IMG/VR virus record: IMGVR_UViG_3300046817_000104
Location: 1 to 27,074 of that record
Strand: one strand, 5' to 3'
DNA: 27,074 nt
Source of the DNA: a virus
Taxonomy: Duplodnaviria > Caudoviricetes
Below, one piece after another: positions 3 to 16,533 of this stretch (position 1 is its first letter; each line of letters begins with the position of its first letter). Below the pieces are notes generated by a model that had not been told where the DNA came from, did not search any database, and worked only from the letters and a program-made list of their open reading frames with translations. The position numbers were made by a program, and so were the translations under genes.

Positions 3-77
3 CTGGCGCAGCACAACGATGGCGGCTATGCCCACCACTGCGGCGACCCGATGGCGCACCCATGCGGTAAGCTGTAG
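3..77 (+). CDS. 3' end of a gene truncated by the window edge (…LAQHNDGGYAHHCGDPMAHPCGKL*)
   Basis: Open frame from nt 3 to TAG at 75-77 with high GC3. The stop runs directly into a TIGR-like half repeat (TAGCC), as seen for tas and terL. Confidence 0.5.
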   Translation: MAQHNDGGYAHHCGDPMAHPCGKL

Positions 78-124
78 CCGGGCTTTCAGAGCGTGCCGAT
101 TGAGCGTGCCGATGGATGAGAGCG
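76..124 (+). repeat. Solo/degenerate TIGR-like unit with an internal loop-repeat duplication
   Basis: AGCC-gggctttca-GAGCGTGCC-gatt-GAGCGTGCC-gatggatga-GAGCG. It has the same half-edge, 9-nt spacer and loop architecture as the arrays, plus a 13-nt duplication. Loop variant GAGCGTGCC also occurs at 1883-1891. Confidence 0.65.
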
Positions 125-309
125 TGACGCCGCAGCACATGCAGTGGCGTCTGTATCTACAGTGGCCCAGCGGCAGGCGCGAGAGCGTGGTGTGCGCTGG
201 GCCACGCCCTGTGATGCCGCCCGGCCACGCTGTCCTGCTTGCCTCGATGCCTGTGCCTGCCCTGGCTGTCCAACCTCTGGATTATTGGCAAACTAGGAGA
301 CCTGACTAG
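112..309 (+). CDS. Hypothetical small protein (start uncertain: 112 or 139)
   Basis: Part of ORF 19..309, filling the gap between the solo unit and the array-1 promoter. No recognisable motif. Confidence 0.3.
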   Translation: MDESVTPQHMQWRLYLQWPSGRRESVVCAGPRPVMPPGHAVLLASMPVPALAVQPLDYWQTRRPD

Positions 310-323
310 GAAAAGAAGCTTTC

Positions 324-361
324 TTGCGCTTCCCCTGCTCGCCGTGGTAGTCCCCTAGATG
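324..361 (+). promoter_or_regulatory. Putative sigma70-type promoter of the TIGR array 1/tas transcript, overlapping a self-target of guide 1
   Basis: TTGCGC (324-329) and TGG-TAGTCC (345-353), preceded by an A-rich tract (311-317), in the only intergenic gap before the array. Nt 344-361 match guide 1 at 15/18. Confidence 0.5.
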
Positions 362-367
362 TCTTCC

Positions 368-658
368 AGCCGTGGAAGCCGAGTGTGCCGATCTAGGGGA
401 GCGAGCCGCACGAGAAGAGAGTGCCGACTATGCCGAGCGAGCCAGGGTGGCTGAGTGTGCCAACCGAGATGAGCGAGCCAGCGCGCGTGAGAGTGTCATG
501 AAGCGAGAGCGAGCCGCGAAATACGAGAGTGCCGTCAGAAGGAAGCGAGCCACGAGTGCTGAGATTACCGGAGCACGCGAGCGAGCCGTACCCCGTGAGA
601 GTACCAACACAAGCGAGCGAGCCGCAGCCTGCGAGAGTGCCGACCACCAGAGAGCGAG
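368..658 (+). repeat. TIGR dual-repeat guide-RNA array 1 (8 units, 36-nt period)
   Basis: Loop repeats GAG(A/T)GT(G/A)CC-like at 381, 417, 453, 489, 525, 561, 597, 633. Edge repeats GAGCGAGCC at 399, 435, 471, 507, 543 (AAGCGAGCC), 579, 615. Spacer pairs A/B: gtggaagcc/gatctaggg, gcacgagaa/gactatgcc, agggtggct/aaccgagat, agcgcgcgt/atgaagcga, gcgaaatac/gtcagaagg, acgagtgct/ggagcacgc, gtaccccgt/aacacaagc, gcagcctgc/gaccaccag. Confidence 0.93.
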
Positions 659-665
659 GACCACA

Positions 666-1835
666 GTGAAACCACCCACCCAGAAGACCGGTAGAGGCGC
701 CCGGAACAAGGCGCCTCCACCACCCCCACCCGACGTCGAGCCAGAGCAGCCGCTGGGCCCCGAGGACTTCCTGGAGATGCAGCCGCTCGATCTGGTGACC
801 GACGCGCTCGATCTGCTGCGCCACGGTGCCAACGGTGGTGGCCAGGAGCTGACCAAGGGCCTGTTCCAGCGGCTCGATGCGCTGCACCAGCTGATGACCG
901 GCACGATGGATCCCGGCCTGCTGACGCCGATCCAGAAGCTGACGGCGGATCTGAAGAAGGCCAGCCGCACCCTCGGCCGCGCCGAAGCACGCTTCCTCAC
1001 CGATGCCTACTACACGATGCAGGAGAATCGCATCCGCACGCGGCATCAGGTCACCACCCTGGCGCAGCCGAAGGATACCGAGAAGGCGCCTGAATCTGCC
1101 GATGGCGAGGCGCCGAAGGAGAGAGTGCCCGAGCCGTATGACGTGCTCGAATGGCTATTCACCCAGGAGGATGCGCTGGAGGTGCAGATCCGGGGCACGC
1201 TGAACATCTACAGCCTGAGCAACCGGCCAGGGATCTGGGCCCGCAGCATCAAGGGCATCGGCCCGGTGATCGCGGCAGGATTGCTGGCCCATATCGACAT
1301 CCGGCGGGCGCCGACGGTCGGGCACATCTGGCGCTTCGCGGGGCTCGACCCGACCAGCGTCTGGGGTAAGGGCGAGAAGCGGCCGTGGAACGCCGCGCTG
1401 AAGCGGCTGTGCTATCTGATCGGCGAGAGCTTCGTGAAGGTGTGCAACCGCCCCGACAGCCTGTATGGCCAGCTCTACAAGGCGCGCAAGGAATGGGAGA
1501 CCGAGCGTAACTCGCGCCAACTGTATGCCGATCAGGCCAAGCTGGCGCTGGAGACCAAGAGCTACAGCAAGGAGACCGACGCGTTCAAGTGGTACAGCCA
1601 GGGCATGCTACCACCGGCTCGTATACACGCGCGTAGCCACAGACGCGCCACCAAGGTGTTCCTCTCGCATCTGCACGAGGTGATGTATTGGCACGAGTAT
1701 GGCAAGCTGCCGCCGCATCCGTATGTGCTGGATCATGTGCCGGGGCATGTGCATAGCCTGGAGATCCCGAACGTCGACATGATCTTCCCGGAGCTTTACG
1801 AGGCGCGTCAGCGGGCGCAGCGTAACAAGCGTTAG
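666..1835 (+). CDS. tasA: TIGR-associated Nop-domain RNA-guided DNA-binding protein (TasA-like; IS110/IS116-related C-terminal domain, no evident nuclease), about 389 aa
   Basis: Motifs SIKGIGPVIAAGLLAHID…GHIWRFAGLDP, WNAALKRLCYLIGESFVK, YGQLYKARKE and HARSHRRATKVFLSHL are typical of the IS110 Transposase_20/Nop fold. No DEDD RuvC N-terminus, no HNH and no IS110 catalytic SG motif after AGLDP. GTG at 666 follows RBS GAGGA (656-660). Flanked by TIGR arrays on both sides. Confidence 0.82.
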   Translation: MKPPTQKTGRGARNKAPPPPPPDVEPEQPLGPEDFLEMQPLDLVTDALDLLRHGANGGGQELTKGLFQRLDALHQLMTGTMDPGLLTPIQKLTADLKKASRTLGRAEARFLTDAYYTMQENRIRTRHQVTTLAQPKDTEKAPESADGEAPKERVPEPYDVLEWLFTQEDALEVQIRGTLNIYSLSNRPGIWARSIKGIGPVIAAGLLAHIDIRRAPTVGHIWRFAGLDPTSVWGKGEKRPWNAALKRLCYLIGESFVKVCNRPDSLYGQLYKARKEWETERNSRQLYADQAKLALETKSYSKETDAFKWYSQGMLPPARIHARSHRRATKVFLSHLHEVMYWHEYGKLPPHPYVLDHVPGHVHSLEIPNVDMIFPELYEARQRAQRNKR

Positions 1836-2049
1836 CCGACATGCCTGAGAGTGCCGACTATGTGGAGCGAGCCTTGTCATCGGAGCGTGCCGAGCATCGC
1901 GAGCGAGCCGCTTCCGGCGAGTGTGCCGTATACAGTGAGCGAGCCGAGCGAGCCGAGAGTATCGACCCAGACGAGCGAGCCGATTGGTCAGAGAGTGCCG
2001 AGAAGAACGAGCTAACCACGGCAATTGAGAGTGCCGAGAAGTGTGAGTG
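1834..2049 (+). repeat. TIGR array 2 (6 units) directly after the tas stop codon
   Basis: Loops at 1847, 1883, 1919, 1955, 1991, 2027; edges at 1865, 1901, 1937, 1973, 2009 (GAGCTAACC). Spacer pairs: gacatgcct/gactatgtg, ttgtcatcg/gagcatcgc, gcttccggc/gtatacagt, gagcgagcc/gacccagac, gattggtca/gagaagaac, acggcaatt/gagaagtgt. Confidence 0.92.
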
Positions 2050-2064
2050 TGATATAACCAGAGC

Positions 2065-3942
2065 ATGTCCGGTGCGTTAGGCACGATTGGTTATCCGACC
2101 CTGCCGACGCCCGGACCGTCGGCGCTATCGTCGTTTGGAGGATCCAGTGGCCCACCCACCCAAGGGCAGCAGTCAATTGGCCCAGCAGTCCCACAGCTAC
2201 CAGCGGTCCACCCCGCAGATCCATCGCGAAGCGGACAAGCTGCTGGAGGAGCTGGTGGACAAGCTGGTGCAGCAGGGGCTTACACGGGAAGAAGCGCGGG
2301 AGCATCTGAGGCACTGGGTCTAGGCCCACCGGTCAAGACCATCTGGAGCGCCAACCGCAGCTACCACAACGCCGACAATCCCGACTACCATGAGCTTCAC
2401 CCCGAGGGCGCGCACGCGTTCCACGCCGCGATCGCCGAGGCCAAGCACGGTCACCCGGCCGGTGCTGCCGTCACCCAGTATCCGGCCGAGGACTACCGCA
2501 AGATGCGGCTGTTCCAGACCAAGGAAGGCGACGCCGGGTTCGCCCTGAAGGGCGACGACATCGTCTCGGTGTTCAAACATCCGAAGGCGCCATACCGTAA
2601 CGTCACCCGATCGATGCTGGATCTCGCCAAGCAGGAGGGCGGCAGGCGGCTCGATGCGTTTGATACCGTGCTGCCGCACATCTACGCGCAGAACGGGTTC
2701 CGCACCGTGGCGCGGCTGCCGTGGAACGAGGACTACAAGCCCGAGGGCTGGAACCACGACGCGTTCAAGCAGTTCAAGGGCGGCAGGCCTGACGTGGTGT
2801 TCATGGCGCATGACCCGCAGGCAGGCGCCTACAACCCTGGTGACGGCCGCACGGTCAGCGACTATGACGAGGGCACGGCAGCGCAGCACGCCGCCCTGGC
2901 GCACGTCGCAGCGCGCGGCAACGTGCCAGCAGCGCCCGGCCCGGAGAGCTACGGCAGCGGCCAGCTGATCAGGATGTCGGATCCTCAGACGGTGTGGCAC
3001 GGCACGCAGCACGAATTCAAACCGACGCGCGTCAATCAGTTGGGCGAGTTCGATCTCAGCAAGATGAGCAGCGGCGAAGGCGGCCAGATGTATGGCCACG
3101 GCGCCTATACCGGTGGCGCCAGGGGGACGGGTGAGGCATACCGGAAGAACCTAGCCGAGGGCGCGAAATATAAGGGCCAGTCAGATCCCATGGGCCTCAG
3201 TGGCCACGATTACAATGCGGCCAGAGAGGTGCTTGATACGATCCACGAGCACGGCATGGCGCCCCAGCAGGCGATCGAGCATGTACGACAGACGCATGAG
3301 CAAGAGGCGGCGAATGCGTTCAGCAAGCCCCAGAGCCACGTCTGGCAGTCATGGCAGGAAGCGGGACATCGCTCTGCTGGCATAGCGGACGCGGTACAGA
3401 GACTGAAGCTAGAGGATTTCACGCATAACCCTGGCCACCTCTACGAAGCCGAGCTGCACATCGACCAGGATCATATGCTGCACTGGGACCATCCCATCGG
3501 GCAGCAGCACCCGTATGTGCAGAGCAGGGCTATCCCTCTCGCTCCATCCGCCTCGATCGGCAGCAAGATGACCGGTCAGATGCTGCACGACTATCTGACC
3601 GGAGGCGACAAGACGCGCAGGCCGATAGCTGCAGAGAAACTGCTGAACGCTGGTATTCCTGGCATCAAGTATGTGGATCAAGACAGCCGGTTAACAGATG
3701 TTGGTCCCTACACTACGGGTGACGGCAAAAGAGCATGGGCTGTGTTCCATAGGAACAATAATTTTCCTCTCGCCACATTCAACACGAAAGAAGAGGCGCA
3801 AGCCCATCTCGAAGCCCACCATCGTACGCACAACTACGTTGTGTTCGATCCAAGAACGATCAACATCGTGAAGCGTAACGGCCTGCCAGCGATGGTGGAT
3901 GCGGGTGCCGATGCGTTGCGCGATCATAAGGCGACAGGCTGA
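2065..3942 (+). CDS. Polyvalent phage protein: GNAT-like domain plus ADP-ribosyltransferase-like (ART-PolyVal-type) domain
   Basis: Long ORF. The segment DIVSVF…LDLAKQEGGRRLDAFDTVLPHIYAQNGF resembles GNAT motifs A/B. VWHGTQHEF…FDLSKMSSGEGGQMYGHGAY…GHLYEAEL…AGIPGIKY…NYVVFDP matches the ART-like domain of phage polyvalent proteins. Confidence 0.6.
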   Translation: MSGALGTIGYPTLPTPGPSALSSFGGSSGPPTQGQQSIGPAVPQLPAVHPADPSRSGQAAGGAGGQAGAAGAYTGRSAGASEALGLGPPVKTIWSANRSYHNADNPDYHELHPEGAHAFHAAIAEAKHGHPAGAAVTQYPAEDYRKMRLFQTKEGDAGFALKGDDIVSVFKHPKAPYRNVTRSMLDLAKQEGGRRLDAFDTVLPHIYAQNGFRTVARLPWNEDYKPEGWNHDAFKQFKGGRPDVVFMAHDPQAGAYNPGDGRTVSDYDEGTAAQHAALAHVAARGNVPAAPGPESYGSGQLIRMSDPQTVWHGTQHEFKPTRVNQLGEFDLSKMSSGEGGQMYGHGAYTGGARGTGEAYRKNLAEGAKYKGQSDPMGLSGHDYNAAREVLDTIHEHGMAPQQAIEHVRQTHEQEAANAFSKPQSHVWQSWQEAGHRSAGIADAVQRLKLEDFTHNPGHLYEAELHIDQDHMLHWDHPIGQQHPYVQSRAIPLAPSASIGSKMTGQMLHDYLTGGDKTRRPIAAEKLLNAGIPGIKYVDQDSRLTDVGPYTTGDGKRAWAVFHRNNNFPLATFNTKEEAQAHLEAHHRTHNYVVFDPRTINIVKRNGLPAMVDAGADALRDHKATG

Positions 3943-5972: not shown

Positions 5973-6156
5973 GATTGACTGGGAACCGTATCGCGGCACC
6001 AACGGGACGTTGGACTACATGCTGAAGAAGGGCATCGAGCCGACGCGGGAGAATTATATCTTCATGGACTATGGCGGGAAGCCGCCTGAGCCGTGGACGG
6101 CGGAGCATGAGAGCATGCTCCCCGAGCCGCTCCAGGAGGGCTACAAGGATGACTGA
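5950..6156 (+). CDS. Small acidic hypothetical phage protein (68 aa)
   Basis: RBS-like GGAG upstream. Overlaps the end of the previous gene and is TGATG-coupled to terL. Confidence 0.75.
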   Translation: MATTPKTKIDWEPYRGTNGTLDYMLKKGIEPTRENYIFMDYGGKPPEPWTAEHESMLPEPLQEGYKDD

Positions 6157-7667
6157 TGCCGCGCCCGAGTCTCGACTTTAACACAGCAGATATCCCCACG
6201 ATCCACGCGTTCCTGCACGATGACGCGTTCATCCGGGGGCTGATGGGTCCGTTCGGTAGCGCAAAGAGTTCCGGATGTCTGTGGGATATCGTTAACCGCA
6301 GCCTCAAGCAGACACCAGGACCGGACGGCATCCGGCGCAGCCGTTGGGCGATCATCCGCAATACGTATAGACAACTGAACGACACCACGATCAGGACCGT
6401 CCACCAATGGTTCCCGTATCCCATGATGGGGATCTGGCGCAGCACCGAGCACGAGTATCTGCTGAACCGGCTGATCGCGCACGGCGACAAGAAATGCGCG
6501 GAAATCGAGCTGCTGTTCCGCGCCCTCGACCGGCCCGACCATGTGCGCAATCTACTGTCGCTCGACCTGACCGGCGCCTGGGTGAACGAAGCCAGGGAGG
6601 TGCCTTGGACGATCATTGATGCGCTGCAAGGCCGTGTCGATCGCTACCCCGCCAAGCGCGACGGCGGCGCGACGTGGGCGGGCATCATCATGGACACCAA
6701 CCCGCCCGACACCGATTCGTCGTGGTACAAGTTCTTCGAGCAGATGGACCACACCGAGGCGGTCGAGCAGCTGGCGCAGTTCATCCCCGGCATGACGGTC
6801 GATCGCTATGCCCGCATCTTCAAGCAACCCTCGGGGCTGAGCCCCAACGCCGAGAACAAGAGCAACCAGAGCCCCGGCTACTGGCAGCGCCTCGCGATCG
6901 GCAAGACCGATGAATGGATCCGGGTTTATTGCAAGGGCGAATATGGTTTCGTCACCGAGGGCAAGCCGGTGTTCCCCGAATACCACGACAACATCCATTG
7001 CCCAGGCAGCGCCGACGAGAAGCGGGCGCCGAAGACCGATCCCAGACTGCCGGTGCATCGCGGCTGGGACTTCGGGCTGACGCCTGCGGTGGTGTTCAGC
7101 CAGCTCGCAGCAAGTGGCCAGTGGAAGGTGGTTGACGAGCTGTGCGCCGATAGCATGGGCATCGACCGGTTCAGCGACCGGGTGCTGTCACACTCGACGC
7201 AATACTTCCCCGACAGCGAGTTCGTTGACGTGGGCGACCCGGCTGGCGACAGCCGCGCCGAGACCGATGAGCGCACCTGCTTCGGTATCCTGCACAACAA
7301 AGGCATCAACATCGAGCCGGGGATGCAGTCGCCGCAGATCCGCCAGGAGGCGGTGCGCAAACCGCTGCGCCAGTTCGATGACGACGGCCGCCCGGCGTTC
7401 AACCTGCACCCCCGCTGCGCGCGGTTGCGACGGGCGCTGATGGGTGGCTACCACTACCGCCGCATTCAGATGGCGGGCAACGAGCGATGGGCCGAGAAGC
7501 CCGAGAAGAATTCGTATTCGCACCCGGCTGATGCGCTGCAATACACCGCGACGCGGCTGTTCGGCCCCAGCCTGCAGTGGAAGGGCGATCAGGTCGACAA
7601 CGAGATGATTGAGCTGAACTCTCGCTTGGTGCAGGATCGCACGCGTAGTCGAACGACGGGCTACTAG
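6156..7667 (+). CDS. terL: Terminase large subunit
   Basis: Walker A-like GPFGSAKSS, Walker B LTGAWVNEARE, coupling motif DTNPP, and nuclease motifs GWDFG, GDPAG and SHPADALQY. Confidence 0.95.
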   Translation: MPRPSLDFNTADIPTIHAFLHDDAFIRGLMGPFGSAKSSGCLWDIVNRSLKQTPGPDGIRRSRWAIIRNTYRQLNDTTIRTVHQWFPYPMMGIWRSTEHEYLLNRLIAHGDKKCAEIELLFRALDRPDHVRNLLSLDLTGAWVNEAREVPWTIIDALQGRVDRYPAKRDGGATWAGIIMDTNPPDTDSSWYKFFEQMDHTEAVEQLAQFIPGMTVDRYARIFKQPSGLSPNAENKSNQSPGYWQRLAIGKTDEWIRVYCKGEYGFVTEGKPVFPEYHDNIHCPGSADEKRAPKTDPRLPVHRGWDFGLTPAVVFSQLAASGQWKVVDELCADSMGIDRFSDRVLSHSTQYFPDSEFVDVGDPAGDSRAETDERTCFGILHNKGINIEPGMQSPQIRQEAVRKPLRQFDDDGRPAFNLHPRCARLRRALMGGYHYRRIQMAGNERWAEKPEKNSYSHPADALQYTATRLFGPSLQWKGDQVDNEMIELNSRLVQDRTRSRTTGY

Positions 7668-7813
7668 CCGCCTTCGCAGAGAGTGCCGTTGTAGATGAGC
7701 GAGCCACGCCACGGGAGAGTACCGTCAATCCAGAGCGAGCCGTGCTGCTGGAGGATACCAAGCCACAGAAGCGAGCCAGTTCAAGCGAGAGTGCCGCCAC
7801 AGGAGAGCGAGTC
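7666..7813 (+). repeat. TIGR array 3 (4 units), satellite array directly after the terL stop
   Basis: Loops at 7679, 7715, 7751 (GAGGATACC), 7787; edges at 7697, 7733, 7769 (AAGCGAGCC), 7805 (GAGCGAGTC). Spacer pairs: gccttcgca/gttgtagat, acgccacgg/gtcaatcca, gtgctgctg/aagccacag, agttcaagc/gccacagga. Confidence 0.92.
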
Positions 7814-10935: not shown

Positions 10936-11054
10936 TGCCTAAGCTGAACCAACACCGCTGCGCAAATCGGACGCAGAAAGGCTGGGGCGCCGAACCGGTG
11001 AAAAACCCCAACACTGGGTGCCGGGGTTCATGGCCCGGCTGGCAGGTCAACTGA
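10935..11054 (+). CDS. 39-aa microprotein MPKLNQHRCANRTQKGWGAEPVKNPNTGCRGSWPGWQVN
   Basis: TGATG overlaps at both ends (10933-10937 and 11052-11056). Below the ORF-track cutoff. Confidence 0.55.
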   Translation: MPKLNQHRCANRTQKGWGAEPVKNPNTGCRGSWPGWQVN

Positions 11055-11452
11055 TGCTTGAAGGGCGCATCCTCAAGACCGGCGATCAGCGCGAGTTCGT
11101 ACATGCCGAATTCGATGGCGCCAATCACAGCGGCATCACGCCGCTCGACGACAAGATCCTGGTGCTGATGGACCAGCACGCCGAGAAGACGTCGGGCGGT
11201 ATCATCATCACGCAGGACACCCAGTCACGCCAGAGCATGGCCAGCGAGACCGGCGTGGTGATCGCTCTCGGCGCAGCGGCGTTTGCGTTCAACGACGACG
11301 GCAACCGGCGCTGGAGCACTGCCAAGCCAATCCCCGGCGATCGCGTCGTGGTCGAACGCTACGCGGGGCGCGTGGTGCAGGGCGAGGACGGCCAGGAATA
11401 TCGATTGGTATCGCAGCGCTCGATCGGCGCGATCTACAGCAAGGCCGAATGA
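11054..11452 (+). CDS. groES: GroES-like co-chaperonin (Cpn10)
   Basis: PLDDKILV…EKTSGGIII…GVVIALG…GDRVVVERYAG…EYRLVSQRSI follows the GroES pattern. ATG 11054 is chosen because of stop-start coupling. Confidence 0.88.
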   Translation: MLEGRILKTGDQREFVHAEFDGANHSGITPLDDKILVLMDQHAEKTSGGIIITQDTQSRQSMASETGVVIALGAAAFAFNDDGNRRWSTAKPIPGDRVVVERYAGRVVQGEDGQEYRLVSQRSIGAIYSKAE

Positions 11453-13465: not shown

Positions 13466-14071
13466 ATGCCAAATGTGAATAGCCCCATGGGGCTGCGCCC
13501 TTACTCCCACCGGAGCGGCGCGCCCTATAACGGTGCGGTCCGCACCTACTATGTCCCCTCCTCCAACCCCACCGCGCTCTACATCGGCGACCCGGTGATG
13601 CTGGTCACCAACAGCTCCGACGGCAACGGCGTGCAGACGGTGGCGATCGCCTCGGCGGGCACCAGCAACCCGGTCCTGGGCTCCTTCCAGGGCATCACCA
13701 ACAACGCCGGGACGGCGGTGATCACGCTGCAGCAGACGCAGACGCCGTATCTCGCGGCGTCGCAGGCGGCTTACGTCGTGGTGTGTGACGACCCGGATCT
13801 GCTCTACCTCGTGCAGGAGGACAGCTCCACCACTGGCATGGTGTCGGGCGCCTCGGGGCGCAACGCCAACCTGATCGCGGGCACCGGCAACACCTACTCG
13901 TCGAATTCCGGGTGGATGCTGTCGAGCAGCTCGATGGGCACCACCATCAACGAGCAGCTGCGCATCGTCCAGCTCCTGCAACAGTCCGACAATGCCGTGG
14001 GCGCCTACGCCAAATGGCTGGTGCGGCTCAACTTCGGCATTCACCCCTGGACCAACGCCACGGGCGTTTGA
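13466..14071 (+). CDS. Probable capsid decoration/cement protein
   Basis: RBS GAGG; MPNVNSPMGLRP…ALYIGDPV…DDPDLLYLVQED; beta-rich small-residue composition; lies just before the MCP. Confidence 0.7.
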   Translation: MPNVNSPMGLRPYSHRSGAPYNGAVRTYYVPSSNPTALYIGDPVMLVTNSSDGNGVQTVAIASAGTSNPVLGSFQGITNNAGTAVITLQQTQTPYLAASQAAYVVVCDDPDLLYLVQEDSSTTGMVSGASGRNANLIAGTGNTYSSNSGWMLSSSSMGTTINEQLRIVQLLQQSDNAVGAYAKWLVRLNFGIHPWTNATGV

Positions 14072-14678
14072 GTTGGATCTCTTGCATCCACTCGGCAGGG
14101 TCTCTCGCGTGCTTCGATTGGTTACAGGGCTGGCACGCGAGGGCGATGTTGCTGATCCAGTTCGTGCCGCCGCGCGCGATCGGCATGACGTGGTCCTCGT
14201 GCCACCCGGCGCTGATATCTGCCGGGCAGTAGGCACAACGCCACCCCTGCCGCTCACCCAGCGCCATGATCTCGGCGTACGTGTGGGAGCCTTCCGCGCC
14301 TCGCTCGCGAGTCTCTCGGTTGCGCTCACCGACGCGCCGTTTCTCGGGGTGCGCCTGCGCCCAGGCGCGTCTCTCCGCGTAGAGGCGGTCCTTGTTCGCC
14401 TCTCGGTGTTTCCTGCGGCGCTCACGCACCTTCTCGGGGTTCGCCGCCGTGTAGGCCGTATTCTGCTCGATGATCTTATCGCGGTTCTCGGCGTAGTAAG
14501 CGCGGAGTCGACGCTTTACCGCAGGGTCATCAATCTTCCTGGCAAGGTCGCACGCGGTACAGGTCTTGTTGTTAACCAGTCGCTCGGCAACATGACCGCG
14601 CTTGCATGGAAGACCGGTGAAGTAGCGCTTCAACCCTTGCGTCATAGCGGCACGGCGCGAGATGGTCTGGTCAGCCAT
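14028..14678 (-). CDS. HNH homing endonuclease with an N-terminal Zn-finger-like DNA-binding region
   Basis: RYFTGLPCKRGHVAER…CTAC and CAYC…EDHVMPIARGGTNWISNIALACQPCNQSK; RBS-like GAAGGGA upstream on the minus strand. Confidence 0.9.
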   Translation of the reverse strand: MADQTISRRAAMTQGLKRYFTGLPCKRGHVAERLVNNKTCTACDLARKIDDPAVKRRLRAYYAENRDKIIEQNTAYTAANPEKVRERRRKHREANKDRLYAERRAWAQAHPEKRRVGERNRETRERGAEGSHTYAEIMALGERQGWRCAYCPADISAGWHEDHVMPIARGGTNWISNIALACQPCNQSKHARDPAEWMQEIQLKRPWRWSRGECRS

Positions 14679-15751: not shown

Positions 15752-15940
15752 ATGACTATTGGCTTCCTGTTTTGGTTGCTGATGATACTAGCCATCGTGT
15801 TCTACGTGGTCGGCTACTGGGGGCCATATGCAAGCAACCCCCATTGGCCGAGGTTCAACGGCGTCTGGGTGTTCGTGCTCCTATTTCTTTTGGGATGGGC
15901 AGTTTTTGGATTTGCCATCCAGGGACCGGGCGTCCGGTGA
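15752..15940 (+). CDS. Small two-TM membrane protein (62 aa)
   Basis: RBS AGGAGG and two hydrophobic segments. Confidence 0.8.
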   Translation: MTIGFLFWLLMILAIVFYVVGYWGPYASNPHWPRFNGVWVFVLLFLLGWAVFGFAIQGPGVR

Positions 15941-16533
15941 GATACTTCGAGCGGATCGCCGCTGGCATCGACGTCGAGCCTCTGTTGCATCAGTTGCGTA
16001 CGCAACCGGAGCTATGGAACGCGGTGCCGATCCGCTCGCAGTATGGCCAGCACAAGGACACCGACGACATCCTGCTGCGCTACAATCGGTTCGACCCGGC
16101 GCGGGATGATCCGCGCGATGTCGTGGTCAGCAGCATCTACTGCAAGAACTATCCCGCCTGGGGCGCGCTGCCGCTCGCCATGCCGATCGTGTTCGGTCTG
16201 ATGGCCAGGGTGCAGGGGGTGCATCTCGGGCGGGTGTTCATCTCCCGCCTGCCGCCCGAGGCATCCATCCCGCCGCACAGTGACCGCGATCCGTTCACTG
16301 AACAGGAATTCCCCGAGCGGCCGGTGCCTGCGGTCTACTACGAGCGCTACCAGCTGACGCTGCAGGCGCACCCTGGCGTGGTGTTCGTGGCGGGCGACGA
16401 GCGGGTCTACATGGAGCCGGGCACGATCTGGTGGTTCGACAATCAGGCCGAGCACACGGTGGAGAACCGCTCGCTGGATGACCGCATCGCCATGACGATC
16501 GACATCCGGCCGTTCAAGCCGCTGGAGCCGTGA
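15937..16533 (+). CDS. Fe(II)/2-oxoglutarate oxygenase, aspartyl/asparaginyl beta-hydroxylase-like family
   Basis: GTGA-coupled start. HxD (IPPHSD), distal His (WWFDNQAEHTVEN) and Arg (DDRI) fit the facial triad and 2OG-binding pattern. Confidence 0.82.
   Translation: MRYFERIAAGIDVEPLLHQLRTQPELWNAVPIRSQYGQHKDTDDILLRYNRFDPARDDPRDVVVSSIYCKNYPAWGALPLAMPIVFGLMARVQGVHLGRVFISRLPPEASIPPHSDRDPFTEQEFPERPVPAVYYERYQLTLQAHPGVVFVAGDERVYMEPGTIWWFDNQAEHTVENRSLDDRIAMTIDIRPFKPLEP

Follow-up and report, generated by a model that had tools for sequence, protein, structure and literature searches.

The 27,074 nucleotides (nt) analysed here, hereafter the window (positions 1 to 27,074 of IMG/VR virus record IMGVR_UViG_3300046817_000104), come from a tailed phage with a dual-repeat TIGR-TasA system, in which the gene tasA (666..1835, + strand) lies between two arrays of guide units and encodes a Nop-domain protein devoid of a nuclease domain. 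On the basis of sequence comparison with related phages, the reading that we propose, and hold to be likely, is that this system would clamp DNA under RNA guidance without cutting it: its first guide would turn down the operon's own promoter, and the guides at the array ends would, at the level of the clade, block the neighbour genes of sibling phages. The system and the gene are known, since the protein is listed among the Tas proteins catalogued by Faure et al. 2025 (PMC12045711), and the novelty is therefore limited to the content of the guides, i.e. to candidate natural targets. In the TIGR-Tas papers, the natural targets and the role of the nuclease-free TasA are given as unknown, because short spacers yield an excess of false matches. 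Neither natural TIGR targets nor autoregulation was found in literature searches that covered chiefly main texts, supplements and one 2026 paper being outside the coverage.

Published TIGR arrays yield 36-nt guides whose two spacers pair with opposite DNA strands, and a guide target was built here as spacer A followed by the reverse complement of spacer B, 8+8 without gap, thus 16 bp. This arrangement had been put forward in the original prediction, which was made from the sequence alone, and the natural sequence matches described below, which occur only in this form at 8+8 without gap, fit it. In array A1 (368..659, +; eight units by pattern scan, opening with a half edge repeat), unit 1 is read as spacer A at 373-380 and spacer B at 391-398 (+ strand). 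Its candidate target lies at 345..360, where 14 of 16 positions match (A half 6/8, B half 8/8), on the predicted -10 box and start region of the predicted array-tas operon promoter (324..353, +; TTGCGC, 18 nt, TAGTCC, read from the sequence). In sigma-70 promoters, such a site spans roughly the region melted by RNA polymerase.

The same correspondence is found in seven of seven pre-tas arrays of the clade (the window phage, G002, G003, G011, G007, G008 and L272): each phage has a guide that agrees with its own promoter at 13-14 of 16 positions, the mismatches numbering 2, 3, 2, 2, 3, 3 and 2 (B half 7-8/8, A half 5-7/8), whereas 40 of the 42 cross pairings of guide and promoter show 5-8 mismatches, one shows 4 and one shows 3. 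All seven sites have the A plus reverse-complement-of-B arrangement and begin either at a hexamer whose first bases are TA or 2-3 nt ahead of it; TTGACT stands 16-18 nt upstream of this hexamer in five of seven related phages, and the G002 promoter at the corresponding position is called by a consensus scan. All seven phages carry the N-terminal extension of tas. When the first units of 41 clade arrays were compared with their own 150 upstream bases, six matched with at most three mismatches, as against none in 15 random sets; five of these six belong to pre-tas arrays. The same comparison returned 1/41 for second units and 1/271 for later units, and among the 41 arrays no first unit matched its upstream bases at gap 1 or 2. 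The simplest reading of these observations is a negative feedback exerted by guide 1 on its own operon, and we regard this autoregulation as quite probable.

Several points nevertheless speak against this feedback. The promoter of the window is not called by the consensus scan, the matching guide of G007 is unit 2 and was picked after inspection, and the seven phages are related and not independent. The mismatches of the promoter guides fall at spacer A positions 3-7, and the binding of guide 1 may be weak because of these A-half mismatches and because spacer A engages first in PlTasA and SpTasH; in favour of binding, published TIGR work has TasR attaching to a site at which B paired fully and A at 6/9. 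The promoter rule for first units gave 0/60 and 0/32 in Tas loci that are more distant, and the comparison of any unit with the region upstream of tas gave 3 of 46 loci, for 1.5 expected. The pre-tas arrays of the next clade mostly begin at a stop codon and not at a promoter.

The second rule concerns the other end of the arrays. It originated in an excess of one-mismatch, no-gap matches in sibling DNA (5 versus 0.9, for 244 guides), which was traced to last units, and was examined on 13 records, including two near-duplicate pairs, which supply 356 distinct guides. With at most two mismatches allowed, eight of 42 last units find a match in the 1.5 kb that, in a sibling, correspond to the stretch downstream of the unit's own slot, versus 0.13 expected (P<=0.0002); first units do so in 0/41 cases and middle units in 1/273, and the excess of last guides is found neither upstream nor at gap 1 or 2. 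Four of the eight matches are new relative to the hits that had suggested the rule. The matched sequences correspond to the Walker A motif of the terminase (GKSSG), QWFPYP, KPEGW, YPHIE and two gene starts, those of the portal gene and of a small Cys-rich gene, and read as conserved peptides. QWFPYP is matched by guides of two phages, which differ only at silent positions, and 11 of the 12 mismatches between guides and their best sibling are synonymous (10 of 12 if an uncertain frame is read otherwise), versus a background of 17%. The alleles carried by the guide's own phage show 2-7 mismatches, which include a switch of serine codon in the terminase Walker A motif, and the QWFPYP site ranks high for recoding (95th/98th percentile).

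The window phage stands at the receiving end of sibling guides at 2737, 6406 and 7237. In the gene that follows array A2, the KPEGW site (2737..2752) is matched 15/16 by the last post-tas guide of G011. The gene of the terminase large subunit, terL (6156..7667, +), carries the QWFPYP site (6406..6421), matched at 15/16 by the final pre-terL guide of G007 and at 14/16 by that of G008, and the DPAGD site (7237..7252), matched 14/16 by the last post-terL guide of G009, a single case which lies on the upstream side. Interference with siblings by the last guides has good support at the level of the clade, and we hold it to be somewhat more probable than its absence.

This second rule has weaknesses of its own. 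For the four last guides of the window phage, no near-slot site with at most three mismatches was found in itself or in the 12 other records, so that the targeting of rivals is seen for the clade and not for this phage's own guides, and 24 of its 25 guides are without a supported target. No guide matches any allele perfectly; the own allele alone is the worst match in one of ten cases and ties for the best in one; recoding is only moderate at the Walker A motif (80th/89th percentile) and is not elevated at DPAGD. In more distant Tas loci the last-unit rule gave 0/59 and 0/32, with a thin sampling of siblings. Both guide-target rules were derived post hoc. A blanket 7+2+7 rule with a central wobble, also post hoc, was rejected after a hold-out gave 1 versus 0.57 and 104 new guides gave 0 versus 0.24. 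No excess was found in the whole 3.7-Mb pool (23 versus 18.7), and among 20 combinations of arrangement and gap the lowest P, 0.035, was that of a control arrangement. Self-targets with at most one mismatch were found nowhere in the own phage at gaps 0-4. Separately, unit 3 of array A3 (7743-7768) matches 15/16 a small membrane-protein gene of sibling phages (L195, position 12542) that does not align to the window; as a target it was set aside, such matches being at chance level in that set of DNA (2 versus 1.2).

The matches of the last guides could also be understood if all boundary guides were self-regulatory, the last ones weakly binding their own downstream gene so as to tune late expression, and the sibling matches arising as a by-product of choosing the best of several alleles. 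In four of the eight downstream cases the own allele indeed has only 2-3 mismatches, the same range as the promoter guide; two of the targets are start codons (portal and small Cys-rich gene), and the own allele is rarely the worst match. In the other four cases, however, the own alleles have 4-7 mismatches where the siblings have 1-2, and nearly all differences between the guides and the sibling alleles are silent, which is what copying from other alleles would produce; we therefore consider this general self-regulation unlikely, and prefer interference with siblings.

The targets lie within 20-700 bases of the array, none is matched perfectly, and a route of acquisition is not established in the published TIGR work, so that the boundary guides might also be relics of the making of units, copied from the DNA beside the array and then left to drift, with no current targeting role. 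Against such relics, guide and promoter differ between phages and yet stay matched in 7/7, drifting guides would not keep their mismatches at silent gene positions, and middle guides turn over by recombination while boundary guides are kept; a purely relic origin appears decidedly improbable to us. This turnover is seen in the co-occurring strain L183, whose terminase is 97% identical to that of the window: its A3 opens with two different units, units 1 and 4 are retained, and units 2 and 3 are absent. The last seven terminase codons of L183 show silent differences at eight positions, and the comparison of L183 1678-1850 with window 7646-7813 suggests a recombination tract running from the end of the gene into an edge repeat. 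Contigs of two of four sequencing runs display the L183-like form of A3, with an exact 72-nt skip from edge to edge. Across seven records, 18 pairs of A spacers and 33 pairs of B spacers are shared exactly, versus 0.5 and 1.1 in column shuffles. In the same records, the half guides that are shared have an unrelated partner in 21 pairs, the same partner in 19 and an intermediate one in 3, and one B spacer of A3 is found in five phages with four partners. Recombination at the repeats, both within and between phages, is thus the likely route of array change. Half-guide duplications numbered 14 across 49 dereplicated loci, none of them in the window phage. A polarised, CRISPR-like addition at the front of arrays, suggested by L183, was discarded, as G011 and G007 have the shared units in another order and conservation can occur at both ends of an array; likewise, a contig of run X17 taken for a re-paired guide of the window proved to be a unit of the G007 type.

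The match of guide 1 might finally reflect a hairpin or attenuator of the leader RNA, without any DNA targeting, spacer B being an inverted repeat of 353-360 and spacer A pairing with 363-368. The RNA of 340-420 does form a long hairpin (-30 kcal/mol, z -2.1, with 5 of 200 shuffles as good), but a fold begun at the predicted start near 361 does not stand out (z 0.31), the site of G011 lies 107 bases away, and such a structure leaves unexplained that spacer A is a direct copy, at 5-7 of 8 positions, of the adjacent eight bases in 7/7 phages. We regard this explanation as very improbable and retain the feedback of guide 1 on its promoter.

The effector proposed for both roles is a protein of 389 residues made of a disordered N-terminus, a helical hairpin (about residues 29-81), a coiled coil and a Nop domain. 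The original prediction had placed an IS110/Nop-fold gene between the arrays and had proposed a profile and structure comparison of 666-1835, which found the Nop fold and no full DEDD domain. By sequence, the protein matches no solved structures other than TasR (9MTY) and TasH. The structure model (mean predicted local distance difference test score 80, from a 29-sequence alignment) superposes on TasH 21KL with Z 16.9 (root-mean-square deviation 4.1, 222 residues aligned) and on TasR 9MTY with Z 16.0 (2.8, 192 aligned), versus Z 11.5 for the IS110 recombinase ISCro4 and 6.2 for Prp31, and nine of nine Foldseek matches at E<=0.001 are Tas chains. The alignments to 9MTY and 21KL begin at residue 103-104 and comprise the coiled coil and the Nop domain only. 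As foreseen, a RuvC or HNH domain is absent: no Pfam hit to either was found in the tasA product, and in the model residues 1-84 comprise three helices and a disordered tail, a stretch without strands and not long enough to make either fold. The protein has, as judged from the model, a Nop/IS110-type RNA-binding fold without nuclease domain. Its assignment as a TasA-like member of TIGR-Tas also stood, since TasH and TasR are the closest structures and identical entries for residues 38-389 exist in Faure et al. 2025. A peptide of the tasA product occurs in at least 22 rows of Table S1 of that paper (node16873), and the five rows displayed are identical to residues 38-389. That the protein is an ordinary IS110 transposase remnant with degenerate repeats is refuted by fold and array architecture: its single Pfam hit is Transposase_20 (residues 193-230), its PHROG label is 'transposase' and a syntenic relative, L278, is without the tas-array block, but DEDD_Tnp_IS110 is not hit at E<=0.1, the N-terminus is all-helical in the model, Tas structures outrank IS110, the protein is catalogued as Tas, the arrays have multiple units in place of a single bridge RNA, and the block absent from L278 comprises about 11 kb and many genes and is not a clean empty site.

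Residue H361 is invariant in the 29 aligned proteins and position 353 is Y, F, W or other; the offset of the structural alignment, which is not a residue-level alignment, places H361 on H296 and Y353 on Y289 of SpTasH, so that Y353/H361 would likely be the match of the SpTasH guide-processing dyad. Among the matches listed, the hairpin of residues 29-81 is found in about the 20 nearest of 120 homologues; it returned only generic helical-hairpin matches (uL29-like, Z about 7) and no usable Atlas hit. No relative of the protein was found in annotated GenBank phages. The close homologues P0008 and P0014-P0022 carry, after residue 233, an insertion of about 60-70 residues, likely a wedge loop, which is absent from the window protein.

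Concerning the arrays, the original prediction was right on the two alternating repeats with a 36-nt period on both sides of the gene, but not on 9-nt repeats and 9-nt spacers. Edge repeats and loop repeats follow each other in turn at an 18-nt step, and in the 104 units of the window phage and its relative G002 the base that follows the CC of each repeat is G or A in 98-99%; since this is the first base of a 9-nt spacer, the repeats are 10 nt long (GAGCGAGCCR for the edge, GAGAGTGCCR for the loop), which leaves 8 nt for each variable spacer. Both repeats read AG-4nt-CCR, a box C/box D common to edge and loop, and the edge repeat has an extra pair, its gap ends being complementary at 0.83-1.0 in the edge phase versus 0-0.33 in the loop phase in the four arrays of G001, a longer record with a single difference from the window over 24,687 shared bases. 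A tolerant search for the loop-9nt-edge pattern returned 26 matches on the + strand, versus a mean of 0.5 in 30 Markov-shuffled windows, and 24 of the 26 lie in or beside arrays. Arrays open with a half edge and close with a broken edge. The prediction of at least 18 guides in 368-2049 was too high: 14 units are present there (8+6), 18 are reached in the window only with A3, and 25 with A0; these 25 units make up four intact arrays that lie scattered among late genes, over a span of about 9.5 kb.

Array A2 (1834..2049, +) has six units, and its half edge overlaps the tas stop codon; the satellite array A3 (7666..7813, +), polymorphic between strains, has four units and overlaps the terminase stop codon; A0, with seven units, lies 1.5-1.7 kb before the window, in G001. 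A decayed single unit at 75..130 (+) starts at the stop codon of a 77-residue open reading frame (ORF), in an area where relatives have a full array. The last broken edge of A1 (652-659, +) likely doubles as the ribosome-binding site of tas (GAGG, 6 nt before GTG). A1 itself is open in frame with tas (372-665), giving an ORF of 487 residues, the GTG at 666 being backed by the starts of homologues; the database proteins P0076 and P0083 have long tails that resemble the read-through of arrays. In the region 7551-8153 of L001, A0 is in frame inside an ORF ending in the conserved YPHIE gene, whose own start codon is there lost, as judged by eye, and a 9-bp hairpin follows this array. In A2, spacer A of unit 4 (1947-1954) is a copy of the edge repeat; edge-identical spacers occur in three phages (the window phage, a G002 unit at about 1810 and an L186 unit at about 2080), two of them in the A position and one in the B position. 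They may come from slippage or serve against arrays; no convincing site was found for an edge-like spacer aimed at other arrays.

In the clade, arrays occupy fixed slots among late genes, G002 having about 80 units in seven arrays and G007, G008 and G011 5-6 arrays each. The half edge overlaps a stop codon at the start of three of the four arrays of the window phage, A1 being the exception with its promoter-like region in front. Array starts fall at stop codons in 15 of 45 cases versus 2.7% of 1,722 control sites, a ratio overstated because the control sites are mostly coding, and, of the 43 starts that have a long ORF no more than 150 nt away, 14 are at a distance of 1-2 from it. The stop-codon arrays leave no room for a promoter and are likely read as mRNA tails. 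A more distant Tas locus, L414, in a 119-kb phage record, has six arrays over 11 kb.

The phage itself, from soil and rhizosphere DNA runs, has terminase, portal and capsid genes by Pfam and PHROG annotation, and contigs from four soil or rhizosphere runs span parts of A1 and A2 and are identical to the window there. Its host is likely an alphaproteobacterium, because relatives of the capsid gene with 80-82% identity occur in Gluconacetobacter genomes (11 genomes, L337-L347); tas and arrays are absent from the flanks fetched there, and from the prophage-like loci examined. Other genes of the window include a free-standing HNH endonuclease gene by Pfam (14028-14678, - strand) just before the major capsid gene and, in the head region, a GroES-like gene (11018-11452) and an Asp/Asn beta-hydroxylase-like gene (15772-16533). 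Upstream of the window, 2516-3442 and 3533-4366 of L001 encode two predicted secreted proteins with a tail made of PEP and a hydrophobic stretch, which we take to be PEP-CTERM-like.

The novelty of architecture that the original prediction implied has to be given up, since the solo-Nop TasA is published as the commonest effector and both arrays on either side of the gene and repression by TasA have been published. The nearest described system is the dual-repeat TIGR-TasA of Faure et al. 2025, exemplified by FpTasA of Flavonifractor plautii, with which the window system shares a solo Nop Tas, 36-nt units of edge, spacer A, loop and spacer B, truncated edges at array ends and carriage by a phage. 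It differs by its 8-nt spacers (9-nt there), its clade-limited N-terminal hairpin, its four intact arrays over about 9.5 kb and the candidates for natural targets, given as unknown in that paper. SpTIGR-TasH of Salicola phage CGphi29 (PDB 21KL, 9W04; PMC13421893; bioRxiv 10.64898/2026.08.11.744272) is the best structural match and has 10-nt repeats and 8-nt spacers, as here, a nearly identical edge repeat, the 8-base pairing per spacer that is proposed here, and a Y/H processing dyad to which Y353/H361 may correspond, but the window protein is without its HNH nuclease; the dead form of SpTasH is a repressor, whether placed at the promoter or in the ORF. Xu et al. 2026 (bioRxiv 10.64898/2026.09.09.750476) describe TasA and dead TasR as repressors, TasA acting in E. 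coli, thus a nuclease-free RNA-guided repression, with arrays upstream, downstream or on both sides; their systems are of the stem-loop type with reprogrammed guides, and natural targets and spacer acquisition are stated as open there.

Both proposed roles have parallels outside TIGR. Virus-borne mini-CRISPR arrays (Medvedeva et al. 2019, PMC6858448) have spacers aimed at adjacent genes of close viruses, the carrier's copy being altered, but rely on host Cas and cleavage, in contrast to the phage-encoded Nop protein, split guides and absence of nuclease here. In the Cas autorepression by CreR/tracr-L (bioRxiv 10.1101/2024.10.29.618823), a partly complementary guide beside the effector gene is aimed at its own promoter, with Cas effectors, single spacers and protospacer-adjacent motifs in place of a dual-spacer guide heading a working array. 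VIPR (bioRxiv 10.64898/2026.04.26.720920), a phage-encoded interference with competitors by RNA-guided silencing for which synonymous escape is discussed, and the interference with competing phages by homing endonucleases (PMC11620839) involve unrelated proteins and recognition codes.

The model that we propose would operate as follows. The operon would be transcribed from the promoter at 324-353 and the satellite arrays would ride on late mRNAs, since they start at stop codons. TasA would cut its own guides using Y353/H361, and the 36-nt guides so cut from the arrays would, as described in the literature, be bound by a Tas dimer. Guide 1 would pair imperfectly with the -10 and start region and thereby provide the negative feedback. 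Each satellite array would keep a guide in linkage with an allele of the neighbour gene that is silently recoded and fits this guide less well, so that in a mixed infection the terminase, portal or other late gene of the competitor would be repressed. The arrays would change by recombination at the repeats, which swaps whole and half guides. In its most general form the model amounts to a positional code, in which the first guide would be a feedback operator directed at the region melted by the polymerase, and the arrays would be spread through the late region because each terminal guide has to stay linked to the silently recoded allele of the essential neighbour gene that it silences in co-infecting siblings; to this general form we give an even chance.

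In conclusion, the comparison of siblings restricted by position yields concrete pairs, namely a 7 x 7 set of guides and promoters and eight pairs of guide and allele in terminase, portal and neighbouring genes. Confirmation of these pairs would mean that TasA regulates its own expression and also serves related phages in competing with one another, that targets for this type of repeat have a set size of 16 bp, and that the dispersal and turnover of the arrays have an explanation. If true, the positional code would amount to a nuclease-free arms race, which would also account for the dispersal of the arrays and for the exchange of their units.

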